DNA of 14,877 bases from a virus. Lineage: Duplodnaviria; Heunggongvirae; Uroviricota; Caudoviricetes. Shown piece after piece: positions 1,307-3,563 of this stretch. Location of the stretch: the IMG/VR virus record IMGVR_UViG_2703718796_000007. The stretch is one strand, 5' to 3'. The position numbers and the translations under genes are program-made. The first letter of the stretch is position 1, and each line of letters begins with the position of its first letter. The notes below the pieces were generated by a model that was not told the origin of the DNA, did no database searches, and saw nothing but the letters and a program-made list of their open reading frames with translations.

Positions 1307-1407
1307 ACAAGAGGCCAAAAAGAATACAGATTTGTAAGTTGCTGATTTTTAATGCTCAGCTGGTTTTTTATACATTAGTGAATTACGCGTTAAAGCGTGC
1401 GAAAAAA

Positions 1408-1430
1408 GGCATAAAACAAGATTTTATGCC
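1408..1430. terminator. AT-rich hairpin flanked by an A-run and a T-run (possible bidirectional terminator between int and alpA)
   Basis: GGCATAAAA-caaga-TTTTATGCC: 9-bp stem, 5-nt loop, preceded by aaaaaa and followed by tttgtatt. Confidence 0.35.
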
Positions 1431-1582
1431 TTTGTATTAACATGAATTTAAATGATTTTATCCTGATTATTCCTCTTTCTGTAAACCATACGACATCAAC
1501 ATTTGCCATTCACCACACTAGCGGGAACAATACGACACAATAAGACACCTGATGACTCTTTAAGAAACGAAAGGGGGCAATA

Positions 1583-1771
1583 GTGTTAAGCACTGATCGG
1601 TTTATACGTGAAAAAGAATGCGAAAAGCTAACAGGCCTTAGCCGCTCATGCCGCTACCGCCTGGAAAAGGCCGGACAATTCCCATCACGTCGTAAACTTG
1701 GTGGGCGTTCTGTTGGCTGGTCTTTATCTGAGGTTTTGGCCTGGAAGGATAGCTGCAAGGCAGTTCACTAA
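1583..1771 (+). CDS. alpA: AlpA/Vis-family transcriptional regulator (winged-helix, excisionase-like)
   Basis: 62 codons; GTG start 5 nt after a GGGGG Shine-Dalgarno. LTGLSRSCRYRLEKAGQFPSRRKLGGRSVGWSLSEVLAW matches the AlpA family pattern. Confidence 0.85.
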   Translation: MLSTDRFIREKECEKLTGLSRSCRYRLEKAGQFPSRRKLGGRSVGWSLSEVLAWKDSCKAVH

Positions 1772-1911
1772 AAAGACTGGCGGCACACAGTCGCCACACA
1801 TCCACTAATACAGAGATATAACTATGAAGATTGAATATGCGCCCGAACGTGGGCGGGGATTCGTTCGCCCTGGTGAAACTGAAAAACAACAAAATTGGGG
1901 TTTTTCAGGCA

Positions 1912-1939
1912 TAAAAAAAGCGGCCCCGATATGGAGCCG
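1912..1939 (-). terminator. Rho-independent terminator ending the leftward RHH operon
   Basis: On the minus strand: GCGGCTCC-atatc-GGGGCCGC (8-bp stem with one G-U pair) followed by TTTTTTT (plus-strand A-run 1912-1918). Confidence 0.6.
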
Positions 1940-2014
1940 CCTTTCTGAACAATTAACCTGCTGCGCCTTATGTGTATGTGATCCCAAACATAAGCACGGG
2001 AATGATAGCCGCTA

Positions 2015-2218
2015 TCAGGCTGGTGGGCAATTACCTTGCTTGTTGGGGCCGTATTGTGCTGCCATTTTCATCCGTTCAGAACGTGAATATTTTTTTAGAA
2101 ACTCATCAAGGACAAAAGCGCATGGAGCGAATCTTTCTGATTCATGCTCGAGCGCCATATTTTCGTGCTCTCTGTTCGTTTTTTGCGATGGTGTATTGGT
2201 TGATTCTTTATTGGTCAT
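2015..2218 (-). CDS. Hypothetical 67-aa protein, cassette-1 partner (paralog of 2675..2902)
   Basis: Protein-like ORF. Shares the MTN start and the motif F-x-L-[DE]-[DE]-F-x-x-K-Y-x-R with 2675..2902 (FVLDEFLKKYSRSE versus FALEDFVDKYPRRL). Confidence 0.5.
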   Translation of the reverse strand: MTNKESTNTPSQKTNREHENMALEHESERFAPCAFVLDEFLKKYSRSERMKMAAQYGPNKQGNCPPA

Positions 2219-2275
2219 TGTGTGTACCTGTAAAGCAATGCGCCGGAGTTCCTCACGCCACGGCGCTGATGTTTT
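2219..2275. repeat. Conserved intergenic block, copy 1 (core 2227..2271), between the RHH stop and the partner start
   Basis: cctgtaaagcaatgcgccgGAGTTcctcacgccacggcgctgatg matches 2911..2955 at 43 of 45 positions, while the flanking coding sequences have diverged. Contains the inverted repeat GCGCCG...CGGCGC. Confidence 0.8.
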
Positions 2276-2470
2276 TTATTCTTTGGGTTCAATACCGCGT
2301 TGCTGTAATTCTTTTCGGATTATTCGTTTTATCCAAGCAGCTAAAGAGTCATCACCGTCTTGTTGTTGTGCTTTTTCCATCTTTTCCCGTAAGTCAGGAT
2401 CTAAACGGAACTGGAAAGGAGGATTACCACGCCTTTCATTTTTGTGTGTTGACACGTCAATTACACCCAT
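2276..2470 (-). CDS. Ribbon-helix-helix (Arc/MetJ-like) DNA-binding protein, cassette 1
   Basis: 64 aa; basic N-terminal tail then FQFRLDPDLREKMEKAQQ...SLAAWIKRIIRKEL, the beta-strand plus two-helix pattern typical of RHH repressors. Confidence 0.6.
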   Translation of the reverse strand: MGVIDVSTHKNERRGNPPFQFRLDPDLREKMEKAQQQDGDDSLAAWIKRIIRKELQQRGIEPKE

Positions 2471-2475
2471 ATAAT
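2449..2475 (+). promoter_or_regulatory. Candidate sigma70 promoter, rightward (copy 1 of a duplicated control region)
   Basis: TTGACA (2449-2454), 15-bp spacer, TATAAT (2470-2475). The spacer is shorter than optimal. Followed directly by a palindromic operator. Confidence 0.35.
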
Positions 2476-2481
2476 GTGTTT

Positions 2482-2497
2482 ATGTGTATATACACAT
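2482..2497. promoter_or_regulatory. 16-bp perfect palindrome operator ATGTGTATATACACAT
   Basis: Perfect dyad symmetry immediately downstream of the -10 hexamer; same TGTG...CACA half-sites as the TGTGCGCACA sites at 3184-3264. Confidence 0.5.
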
Positions 2498-2510
2498 TAC
2501 ACACAACTAG

Positions 2511-2555
2511 CACAAAAAACAACGCCCCGCAGTGATGGGAACACATACGGGGCGT
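2511..2555 (-). terminator. Rho-independent terminator on the minus strand (copy 1 of a conserved hairpin block)
   Basis: Stem ACGCCCCG / CGGGGCGT (8 bp, 18-nt loop); on the minus strand it is followed by TGTTTTTTG. Lies between the two minus-strand cassettes. Confidence 0.55.
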
Positions 2556-2674
2556 CTAACCAAACCATTAATTGAGGTAACGATTATGGCTATAAAAGAG
2601 CATAGCTTACTCTTTATACACACACAAACGCCCCGGAAACGGAATAATCCGTTTCATAGTTCGGTTTTGTGCAC

Positions 2675-2902
2675 TCATCCTGGCGGTCGGTTTTTGCCGG
2701 ATTTAAGCCGCCGTGGGTATTTATCGACAAAATCTTCAAGGGCAAATTTTTCTGGTGGCACTAAGCGCGGCGCTGGTGGTGGTATTTTTGTTCTGGTTAG
2801 TTCTTCCTCAAGTCTGGCGCAGGCTTCTGACTGCCTTTGCCGAATGATTTCATCTTCTTGCGTCTGCGTGTCTTGTATTGGTGATAGTGTGTTGTTGGTC
2901 AT
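2675..2902 (-). CDS. Hypothetical 75-aa protein, cassette-2 partner (paralog of 2015..2218)
   Basis: Protein-like ORF; shared MTN start and F-x-L-E-D-F-x-x-K-Y motif with 2015..2218; Pro-rich central segment. Confidence 0.5.
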   Translation of the reverse strand: MTNNTLSPIQDTQTQEDEIIRQRQSEACARLEEELTRTKIPPPAPRLVPPEKFALEDFVDKYPRRLKSGKNRPPG

Positions 2903-2959
2903 GGTACTGCCCTGTAAAGCAATGCGCCGTAGTACCTCACGCCACGGCGCTGATGGTGG
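2903..2959. repeat. Conserved intergenic block, copy 2 (core 2911..2955)
   Basis: cctgtaaagcaatgcgccgTAGTAcctcacgccacggcgctgatg; see copy 1 at 2219..2275. Confidence 0.8.
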
Positions 2960-3157
2960 TTATTCCTGCTCTTTGGCCTTGCGGCGCTGTTCATATTTTA
3001 ATTTGCGTCCACAGGCATCTAAGACCCATGCGGAAAAATTAGCACTAGGATTAGTTAATTTTTCTTGTTCAACGCTGGCATCAATCCCATCTATAAGCTC
3101 ATGTGGGAATCGAATATTTTTCTTTGCTGATTTGTTGTTTGTGTTACCACTAGACAT
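2960..3157 (-). CDS. Ribbon-helix-helix DNA-binding protein, cassette 2
   Basis: 65 aa; IRFPHELIDGIDASVEQEK...NFSAWVLDACGRKL fits the RHH beta-strand plus helices pattern. GAGGTG Shine-Dalgarno 5 nt before the ATG on the minus strand. Confidence 0.55.
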   Translation of the reverse strand: MSSGNTNNKSAKKNIRFPHELIDGIDASVEQEKLTNPSANFSAWVLDACGRKLKYEQRRKAKEQE

Positions 3158-3183
3158 TGATGCACCTCACTTAAATGGACTTT

Positions 3184-3264
3184 ATGGGCGCACACAATAC
3201 AGCAAAAAAAATGAGATGTTAAGTATTGACATGTGCGCACACATGATTTTAATCTGTGCGCACA
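3184..3264. promoter_or_regulatory. Divergent control region with three TGTGCGCACA-type palindromic operators and a rightward sigma70-like promoter
   Basis: TGGGCGCACA (3184-3193), TGTGCGCACA (3232-3241) and TGTGCGCACA (3255-3264). The last two are 23 bp apart and bracket the promoter TTGACA (3226-3231), 16-bp spacer, TTTAAT (3248-3253). A possible leftward promoter TTGCTG...TAAAGT lies near 3175-3205 on the minus strand. Confidence 0.55.
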
Positions 3265-3292
3265 GTTTGAGTTTTGTCACTCAAATTAAGCA

Positions 3293-3326
3293 ACGCCCCG
3301 CAGTGCTCGCAACACATGCAGGGCGT
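3293..3326. other. Conserved hairpin block, copy 2, in the 5' leader of the rightward operon
   Basis: ACGCCCCG...CAGGGCGT (one mismatch in the stem), then CTAACCA and GAGGTA-N4-ATG; parallels 2520-2588, where the same block precedes an ATG at 2586. Confidence 0.5.
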
Positions 3327-3362
3327 CTAACCACCAACGATAGCGAAAGTATCGAGGTAGCT

Positions 3363-3563
3363 ATGAGAAATAATACCACACACCCGCAAGGGCGGGACTC
3401 GCACAACCTGAATAAATACATCTGGCGTTTTATCGCCCTGAGCACGGCACAACCGCGCGTGATTACCATTGAGGCCACCAGCGAACAGGAAGCACGCCAG
3501 CAATCCCCGGCTGGCTGCGTGATGGTATTCGCTGCCCGTATTCGCCAGGGGGTAGGCTTATGA
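3363..3563 (+). CDS. Hypothetical 66-aa protein, first gene of the rightward early operon
   Basis: ATG 4 nt after GAGGTA; shares its stop with the next gene's start (ATGA overlap at 3560). Family not recognised. Confidence 0.5.
   Translation: MRNNTTHPQGRDSHNLNKYIWRFIALSTAQPRVITIEATSEQEARQQSPAGCVMVFAARIRQGVGL

Follow-up and report, generated by a model that had tools for sequence, protein, structure and literature searches.

A conserved hairpin-forming spacer between repressor and partner genes of Escherichia phage satellites, a candidate leaky terminator and leader

Introduction

Why would a short non-coding spacer be better conserved than the two genes that it separates? The question is raised by a stretch of 14,877 nucleotides from IMG/VR virus record IMGVR_UViG_2703718796_000007 (hereafter, the window), which belongs to an Escherichia phage satellite of the capsid-forming phage-inducible chromosomal island (cf-PICI) type. 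Next to the regulator gene alpA, the window carries two leftward cassettes (A and B), each made up of a gene for a ribbon-helix-helix (RHH) protein, a 57-nt spacer and a gene for a small partner protein. Leftward genes of this kind are not discussed in published cf-PICI descriptions, and the silence and helper sensing of cf-PICIs and related Gram-negative satellites are poorly understood beyond the requirement for AlpA.

Here, we report that a 42-nt core of the spacer is kept by selection and forms an element that is undescribed, though familiar in kind. The hairpin that it is predicted to form most likely limits expression of the second gene. The specific reading we favor, with a probability of roughly 0.42, is that of a leaky terminator or attenuator on the leftward mRNA that doubles as the leader of the partner gene. 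The nesting of the repressor cassette antisense within a long frame of the eta/kil type is a more unusual feature of the region than the spacer element itself.

Results

The spacer core is kept by selection

The two cassettes comprise the following features, with positions given along the window.

2015-2218, minus strand: partner A, an MTNK-type small helical protein of 67 aa (phrog_21027 at 2e-12)
2219-2275, minus strand: spacer A, 57 nt (conserved core at 2227-2268, hairpin at 2240-2266)
2276-2470, minus strand: RHH-A, 64 aa (or 59 aa with GTG as start), a repressor that is Arc-like or distantly related to YlcI/YnfO
2675-2902, minus strand: partner B, an MTNN-type small protein of 75 aa (C-terminal motif FALEDFVDKYPRRLK..RPPG)
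2903-2959, minus strand: spacer B, 57 nt (conserved 42-nt core at 2911-2952, hairpin at 2924-2950)
2960-3157, minus strand: RHH-B, a YlcI/YnfO-family ribbon-helix-helix-type repressor of 65 aa (NF041551, PF13132, phrog_949)

An earlier inspection of the letters alone (hereafter, the sequence-only reading) had described the open reading frame (ORF) layout, both 57-nt spacers, a 45-nt core that is identical at 43 of 45 positions between the cassettes (2227-2271 versus 2911-2955) and a GCGCCG...CGGCGC hairpin, all of which were reproduced from the sequence. The core match has a binomial P of about 1e-20 at p = 0.3. Over their full length, spacers A and B align without gaps and are identical at 46 of 57 positions, whereas the RHH pair shares 55% nucleotide and 12/67 amino acid identity and the partner pair 52% and 23/87.

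Comparisons were made within a set of 81 distinct RHH-spacer-partner cassettes from 109 IMG/VR viral loci, two E. coli genome loci and the window, together holding 51 RHH, 45 partner and 35 spacer sequences. The spacer measured 57 nt in all 81 cassettes. Among 318 sampled pairs of diverged cassettes, in which both genes were less than 70% identical at the nucleotide level (means of 56% and 57%), the 42-nt core (CAGCGCCGTGGYGTGAGGWACTMCGGCGCATTGCTTTACAGG) remained 89% identical on average, bearing out the claim that the spacer is better conserved than the genes. The third position of a fourfold-degenerate arginine codon 27 nt upstream of the RHH stop was saturated, with an entropy of 1.79 bits, while columns of the core stayed at 0-0.6 bits in the 81-cassette alignment. 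Because this site is saturated and the core is not, the core is kept by selection, and recent common ancestry is excluded as the cause. The spacer is thus a constrained cis element, as had been proposed.

RHH gene, spacer and partner gene share one frame on the cassette strand, and both window spacers are open in that frame. However, TAA or TAG occurs in frame at four different spacer positions in several variant classes, and spacer variation lacks codon periodicity, which indicates that the spacer is untranslated on this strand and ruled out both a coding spacer and an RHH-partner fusion produced by read-through or frameshifting. Rfam 15 covariance models returned nothing overlapping either spacer at E up to 10; the C4, CI and IsrK families had no match here, and across the whole window C4 and IsrK had none at E up to 1. 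Neither a scan nor inspection by eye found a sigma-70 promoter within the spacer on either strand.

A strand-biased hairpin with terminator-like features

In the leftward RNA, the core is predicted to fold into a GC-rich stem of 9-12 bp (GCGCCGUGG/CUACGGCGC) with five almost invariant outer pairs and a UGAGG-type loop (consensus YGUGAGGWA). The tail 3' of the stem (AUUGCUUUACAGG) continues into the AGG of the partner gene, which is followed after 8-9 nt by the AUG. Free energies range from -8 to -21 kcal/mol on this strand, and in 34 of 37 variants the leftward hairpin is more stable than that of the opposite strand (mean of -15.0 versus -11.6 kcal/mol) because of G.U pairs: every one-sided stem change turns a G-C into a G.U pair in the leftward RNA, and one such pair is present even in the commonest sequence. 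Ninety percent of stem cells are paired. Double compensatory changes (G-C to U-A and C-G to U-A) are found at two pairs, both in a single divergent copy (L113a), and L144 retains its stem via wobble pairs. Overall, such constraint would fit an RNA structure formed on the strand of the cassette itself, which was among the roles suggested by the sequence-only reading.

In a consensus scan, the commonest variant, with its stem lengthened to 11-12 bp, was terminator-like on the sense strand only (12 pairs, a loop of 3 and the tail ATTGCTTTAC), and the U positions of the tail are all 88-100% conserved. With 5 U in 8, the tail AUUGCUUU satisfies the scan rule in this common variant, although the tract is interrupted and the window copies fail the rule for loop size.

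In the mechanism we favor, each cassette would be a leftward transcription unit consisting of a promoter with operators, the RHH gene, the 57-nt spacer, the partner gene and a strong terminator. Once transcribed, the core would fold into its stem-loop with the U-rich tract AUUGCUUUAC directly after it, and act as a leaky intrinsic terminator, or as an attenuator and 3' stabilizer, that ends most RHH transcripts. Since the tract runs on into the weak ribosome-binding site of the partner (ACAGG, 8-9 nt, AUG), the element would also form the partner leader, and the outcome would be abundant repressor with little or conditional partner. The RHH protein would bind type-specific palindromes in a back-to-back promoter region, repressing its own promoter as well as the rightward operon that encodes the Icd-like protein and primase. 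The element would in addition be the exchange point of RHH and partner modules, as it is the sole sequence common to otherwise heterologous modules. This reading is preferred because the element sits exactly at the position expected of an RHH terminator and always accompanies a partner start. Its position is further supported by locus L143, where the hairpin stays on the RHH 3' end although the partner is replaced, and by the partner-less Klebsiella island, where a terminator-like hairpin lies 26 nt past the RHH stop. Termination, down-tuning of the partner and repression are what we infer from the direct evidence of selection on the core, the strand-biased hairpin, its terminator-like score, the candidate operators and module reassortment.

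Several observations weigh against a terminator. Covariation is thin: most stem pairs are invariant and, despite the two double changes in one copy, the covariation score was equalled by 76 of 500 shuffles. The U tract is broken up (AUUGCUUUA), the two window copies have a 9-nt loop and were not scored as terminator-like, and their hairpins fold no better than shuffled sequence (z-scores of -0.8 and -1.3). A consensus terminator follows the RHH gene in just one of three islands from other genera, with none in Salmonella or Yersinia. Finally, a terminator would not require primary sequence to be conserved this strongly, in the loop (GUGAGGWAC) and at tail bases other than U as well, which points to an additional sequence-specific reader.

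A translational device in place of a terminator is an alternative that we regard as unlikely. The UGAGGU of the loop would then be a 30S standby site, or a mini-ORF of 7-13 codons (UUG/GUG...UGA) would be coupled to the partner by termination-reinitiation at its AUG (AUGA). In keeping with this, the GAGG of the loop hardly ever varies, in 81/81 cassettes the +1 frame is open up to a UGA overlapping the partner AUG, a UUG lies 7 codons upstream in 67 cassettes and/or a GUG or UUG 13 codons upstream in 76, and the partner's own Shine-Dalgarno (SD) sequence is weak (AGG). However, UUG is missing from one entire spacer class (AUCG...), the 13-codon GUG is located inside an SD-like motif and has no SD of its own, and 12 nt separate GAGG from UUG across the paired 3' arm. 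The ATGA overlap is trivial given an A-initial second codon, and the loop GAGG has decayed to GAAG, GAGU or AAGG in some variants. A CsrA site in the loop was also considered and rejected, as GGA is unconserved (GGU in half of the variants).

Conservation of loop and tail beyond structural demands, together with an element that stays invariant while both flanking proteins vary, would also suit a sensor of a trans-acting factor, and any such reader must then be common to all islands. Binding of a host or helper-phage RNA-binding protein (e.g., an N-type antiterminator at a nut-like hairpin plus the boxA-like UGCUUUACA) or of a small RNA would switch the partner on when a helper phage infects. 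The 5-bp GC stem and tail bear what we take to be a loose likeness to boxB/boxA of lambdoid and rrn antitermination sites. Conversely, even at E up to 10 Rfam offers no family for the element, positions G46 and C47 of the boxA-like stretch vary (CG, AT, GA, AC) in a way that would be intolerable for a NusB/E site, the loop is unlike every known boxB pentaloop and no candidate factor was found, making this alternative quite improbable. The satellite's own AlpA was rejected as a Q-like antiterminator: the characterized Pseudomonas AlpA uses residues up to 142 and an N-terminal ring, whereas the window AlpA is a 62-aa protein consisting only of a helix-turn-helix (HTH).

Repressor and partner modules reassort around the core

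Among 12 RHH core types and 4 partner types, 23 of the 48 possible combinations were found. Single RHH types occur with all four partner types, and the partner B type occurs with at least 8 RHH types. Together with type-specific sequence starting right at both edges of the 42-nt core, these combinations argue that modules are exchanged at the core. In locus L143 (1846-2382) of an E. coli island, the partner is replaced by unrelated AT-rich cargo encoding a 178-aa membrane-protein-like product, while the hairpin and ATTGCTATG are still attached to the RHH 3' end and the breakpoint falls directly after the spacer core.

The same junctions and the L143 breakpoint could be taken to mean that the core is mainly a DNA-level recombination joint with no RNA function, serving module swaps either as a linker that islands have in common or as a core site with an imperfect inverted repeat (9-9-9). 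We consider this very unlikely: crossing over in a linker does not by itself conserve anything, and the neighboring synonymous site is saturated. Moreover, G.U changes on one strand only break a DNA palindrome and preserve an RNA hairpin, no recombinase is associated with the element, and the window holds just two copies.

The proposed leader role extends to degraded islands, found for instance next to iha in O104:H4-type strains, insofar as every partner-family gene seen has the hairpin and an ACAGG 8-9 nt before its ATG. Loci L113 (5090-5870), L142 and L144 (1400-1840) carry arrays of two or three partner-family genes and no RHH gene. Ahead of each array gene come what is left of an RHH tail, the hairpin, which shows compensatory or wobble changes, and ACAGG-N8-ATG. 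The array partners have mosaic N-termini (MTNEE.., MDLSPED.., MNENK..) and a common C-terminal module, F-x-L-E-x-F..KYPRRLK..RPPG.

The element was present in 1685 of 5426 complete E. coli genomes (~31%), in up to 7 places per genome and with 2763 genomic copies in total. A pattern search found none in phage records and found it in 8 Escherichia plasmid-labelled records, one of them Escherichia albertii. With a degenerate core pattern, a single species-representative genome matched (Shigella flexneri), which together with the E. albertii plasmid record makes up all occurrences seen outside E. coli. A looser pattern gave 19 matches in metagenomes, all due to chance and none with the hairpin. 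Islands of Salmonella, Klebsiella and Yersinia retain an RHH gene in the same place and lack both spacer core and partner; the element therefore belongs to the Escherichia/Shigella partner module and not to the RHH gene as such.

Both partners share the motif F-x-L-[ED]-[DE]-F-x-x-K-Y-x-R noted by the sequence-only reading (FVLDEFLKKYSR in A, FALEDFVDKYPR in B), and its view that they match nothing recognizable also held. Neither partner had a significant match in Pfam, NCBIfam or PDB sequences; in PHROGs, partner A alone matched phrog_21027 (function unknown), leaving partner B with no family match at all. Fifteen homologues of partner A were found, in E. coli only, and the divergent partner of locus L031 matched itself alone when used as a query. 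An AlphaFold 2 model of partner A has three helices with a mean confidence score (pLDDT) of 66 and is confident only near the shared motif; this low-confidence model had no Foldseek neighbor in the PDB. Ratios of nonsynonymous to synonymous polymorphism (pN/pS) were 0.38-0.69 across partner groups (0.47 for partner B) and 0.16 for the RHH set. The minus-strand ORFs are hence unequal in their support: RHH genes are clearly under purifying selection, and the partner is a helical protein that is under weak constraint and lacks known relatives.

Free reassortment makes specific protein-protein pairing unlikely, unless it occurs through a shared RHH C-terminal tail. The suggestion of an antitoxin-toxin or cognate repressor-antirepressor pair is not supported in view of the 23 combinations, the 57-nt structured spacer and the lack of any toxin or antirepressor match in Pfam, NCBIfam, PHROGs, PDB sequences and Foldseek. 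To call the cassettes a tandem duplication is too simple, since their RHH types and operator palindromes differ as in heterologous modules.

RHH proteins as candidate repressors of differing specificity

RHH-B is a clear member of the YlcI/YnfO (DUF3950) subfamily as judged by its profile matches: NF041551 at 3.5e-16 (59 bits, cut-off of 30), PF13132 at 1.6e-6 (28.3 bits, cut-off of 25) and phrog_949 at 9e-28. RHH-A is a distant relative, matching NF041551 below the cut-off (6e-4, 19.7 bits) and phrog_228, 'Arc-like repressor', at 2e-6. No significant match to a PDB sequence was found for the RHH proteins. The RHH-B type has 115 homologues across Enterobacterales, including widespread ones at 60-82% identity. 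The regions that would control and close the cassettes are listed below.

1913-1941, minus strand: intrinsic terminator after partner A (GCGGCTCCATATCGGGGCCGC then T7, read off the sequence; the homologous L003 site scored terminator-like)
2472-2506, no strand assigned: cassette A control region (palindromes ATGTGTAT/ATACACAT at 2482-2497 and flanking arms)
2514-2556, minus strand: hairpin HP-A (folding z-score of -6.1; inverted repeat I4; conserved between both cassettes)
3185-3264, no strand assigned: cassette B control region (TGTGCGCACA-type palindromes at 3185-3194, 3232-3241 and 3255-3264)
3291-3328, minus strand: hairpin HP-B, homologous to HP-A (folding z-score of -4.0; inverted repeat I5; aligned with HP-A)

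In cassette B, the three TGTGCGCACA palindromes (starts at 3185, 3232 and 3255) overlap promoter-like hexamers. A leftward promoter-like site (3222 to 3194) stands back to back with a putative rightward promoter read by eye (TTGACA at 3226-3231, a 16-nt spacer and TTTAAT at 3248-3253), both between RHH-B and the Icd-like gene. The palindromes are type-specific, cassettes A and B differing completely in their control regions, and are presumed to be RHH operators. RHH-A and RHH-B are therefore probably repressors of differing specificity, each facing rightward transcription. Of the two-component switch envisaged by the sequence-only reading, the repressor half is supported by these palindromes over back-to-back promoters, while the cognate pairing with a partner is not.

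HP-A and HP-B form a second conserved hairpin element, one upstream of each cassette promoter, with HP-B placed past the promoter region of cassette B and before the start of the Icd-like gene. Both are terminator-like on the minus strand, where HP-A forms a strong terminator-like hairpin closing cassette B (GACGCCCCG...CGGGGCGTT then GTTTTTTG). On the plus strand, both lie ~25 nt 5' of an SD-ATG (2586 and 3363). Their Rfam matches were at chance level only (R1162 antisense RNA, E about 3.5). Duplex energies for kissing or long-range pairing between the spacer and these hairpins were dominated by GC-rich self-complementary segments, so that the scores are uninterpretable. Around the downstream ATG of HP-A, TTGAGGTAACGATTATGGCT (2572-2600, plus strand) is a copy of the SD-ATG surroundings where the Icd-like gene starts, TCGAGGTAGCTATGAGA (3352-3368), indicating that the repeated unit includes both the leftward cassette and the 5' end of the rightward operon.

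A long stop-free frame runs antisense to the cassettes

A feature absent from the sequence-only reading is a plus-strand frame that stays open opposite the cassettes and runs into the Icd-like gene. The features concerned are as follows.

1583-1771, plus strand: alpA (PF05930), regulator immediately upstream of the cassette region, encoding a 62-aa HTH-only protein
1824-2474, plus strand: long stop-free frame of 216 codons, starting 52 nt past alpA behind a GAGA/GAGG SD, antisense to cassette A
2586-3563, plus strand: long stop-free frame with an ATG at 2586 behind an SD, antisense across all of cassette B and in frame into the Icd-like gene
3363-3563, plus strand: Icd-like (P4 Kil-like) gene at the head of the rightward replication operon (NF033153 at 1.4e-19; homologous loci so annotated by PGAP)

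Plus-strand frame 0 contains only two stops between 1809 and 3560 (at 2472 and 2508), compared to 29 and 43 in the other frames. These stops split it in the window into an ORF from alpA through cassette A and another, in the same frame, from behind HP-A through cassette B. The antisense frame whose third positions match sense third positions has no stop across RHH gene, spacer and partner gene in 81/81 cassettes. Resampling of synonymous codons led to an expectation of 0.1-2.1 stops per gene, with 0 observed in 18 representatives of <70% identity, which are non-independent. In most loci, the stop-to-stop frame measures 300-765 codons and stays in frame until the Icd-like gene ends. For example, island L116 of O157 type (1997-2941, minus strand) has a 314-codon ORF that starts at MKIEYTPERGRGF behind an SD just past alpA and ends in the Icd-like domain, and ORFs of 331-561 codons in Klebsiella and Yersinia end in NF033153. 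The same layout is seen in L138 (2065-3747), L140 (2104-3096) and L141 (2116-3204), all on the minus strand. An exception is the Salmonella P4-like locus L136, where the long frame is out of frame with icd.

The product of this frame looks unconstrained: where no minus-strand gene overlaps, codon periodicity is lacking, with 15, 13 and 11 variable columns at the three codon positions, and pN/pS of the antisense frame exceeds that of the sense frames. Indel lengths were discarded as a test of frame maintenance, as blastn gap placement was too noisy even within the RHH gene. Near the start of the long frame, GGGCGGGGATTCGTTCGCCC (1860-1895, plus strand), which encodes ..GRGFVRPGE.., is conserved across differing island types and forms a small hairpin.

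Could this frame, rather than the leftward RNA, be what holds the core constant? The core would then serve the eta-like frame or its mRNA (through pairing, a pause or a terminator for read-through transcripts on their way to the Icd-like/primase operon), or act as a kissing-loop site between sense and antisense transcripts. The frame through the spacer is open in 81/81 cassettes, usually into the Icd-like gene, and accounts for a spacer length that is a multiple of three. In addition, the plus-strand ATG in alignment columns 42-44 (CAT on the minus strand) hardly varies, and the plus-strand hairpin of cassette A is followed by T6. Yet A.C mismatches weaken the plus-strand hairpin exactly where the minus strand has G.U pairs, the plus-strand peptide varies freely (C-K-[ATISV]-M-[RH]-[RLH]...) under an antisense pN/pS above that of the sense strand, and the need for an open frame cannot account for the near-identity of 42 nt. 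As other genera also keep the long frame and lack the core, the frame leaves the conservation of the core unexplained, and a plus-strand constraint is most improbable.

Further features of the island

Along the window, an integrase gene (1-1218) is followed by alpA, the two leftward cassettes, the Icd-like gene and ORFs of primase, capsid, portal-protease and terminase size. A near-identical int-alpA-cassette A-cassette B-icd-DUF4222-primase layout is annotated in E. coli chromosomes, where the insertion adjoins tqsA. An AT-rich hairpin between int and alpA (1369-1450, plus strand), with a sub-threshold Rfam match to BSnc120 (27 bits, E of 0.01), is probably merely the int terminator. RefSeq annotation of the cassette region is inconsistent across genomes (L114 2499-2754, L115 2389-2868, L116 2348-2941): the same DNA is given as RHH and partner genes in some and as an opposite-strand 'Icd-like' or 'BRO-N domain' pseudogene in others.

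Discussion

As a leaky terminator, the spacer element would find its closest counterparts in intercistronic attenuators such as lambda tR1 between cro and cII, and in partial operon terminators. In these systems too, the gene of a small DNA-binding regulator comes first, and a GC-rich hairpin and U-rich tract in a short untranslated gap make the second gene dependent on read-through. Lambda tR1 is Rho-dependent. The element described here differs in its interrupted U tract and in the conservation of loop and tail far past the needs of a terminator. Unlike in the lambda tR1 setting, no antiterminator or nut site was identified, and termination is presumed.

A second parallel is found in P22 immI, where the RHH repressor Arc is encoded by the first gene of a two-gene immunity operon in a region of divergent, overlapping transcription. 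There, the second gene is controlled via the arc-ant intercistronic region, and sar is a 69-nt antisense RNA. The cassettes resemble immI in having an RHH repressor gene first, a second gene behind an intercistronic region, and divergent or overlapping transcription. However, their partners have no similarity to Ant, Bro or KilAC proteins, a scan found no sar-like promoter on the opposite strand, and the opposite-strand RNA would here arise by read-through and be both long and translated. Among type II toxin-antitoxin modules, those whose antitoxin is an RHH protein (ParD/ParE, CcdA/CcdB, RelB-like) likewise place an RHH gene upstream of a small second gene on mobile elements, and the cassette RHH gene is probably autoregulated as in such modules. 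In contrast to them, the cassettes have a 57-nt structured spacer instead of a gene overlap, a partner with no match to a toxin family or fold, freely reassorting RHH and partner types, and homologous islands in other genera where the RHH gene is present and the partner absent.

The long frame invites comparison with P4. In the part of PMC10111431 that summarizes Forti et al. 1999, nested eta/kil genes are placed downstream of vis, an alpA homologue, and translation of the long frame that ends as Kil is said to prevent termination of upstream late-promoter transcripts. The satellites analyzed here share a long ORF just past an alpA/vis homologue that extends over an internal promoter and leader hairpin and ends as a short Kil/Icd-like protein, and by analogy the P4-type link between translation of the long frame and non-termination may apply to them. 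They differ in frame length (300-765 codons versus about 198 in P4) and in immunity: P4 immunity is RNA-based (CI RNA with seqA/seqC), whereas here a protein repressor gene, joined by a partner in Escherichia, lies antisense within the long frame.

Although we give it little credence, this arrangement can also be combined with the idea of a trans-acting reader. The core would then be a riboregulator of Escherichia satellites whose hairpin serves as a sensor for some factor that all islands have in common, with helper infection flipping a switch between convergent transcripts. In the doubtful event that this holds, the role of factor might fall to an antiterminator from the helper phage, to a different RNA-binding protein or to the eta-like rightward transcript through its complementary loop. 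Transcription reading through from the alpA side, sustained by translation of the long frame, might silence the embedded repressor cassette, and antitermination at the hairpin might free the partner, a sequence of events we think improbable. If it were true, a repressor nested antisense in an eta/kil-type frame would represent an undescribed satellite immunity architecture across Enterobacterales.

The stop-free antisense frame into the Icd-like gene extends the eta/kil logic of P4 to PICIs and exposes the inconsistency of current annotation, in which genes are called on one strand and pseudogenes on the other. More broadly, the region offers a testable regulatory module, composed of type-specific RHH proteins with candidate operators at the promoter of the replication operon, an exchangeable partner and one invariant RNA element. 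If the hairpin gates partner expression, it would offer one conserved point at which the induction of many different satellites could be perturbed.

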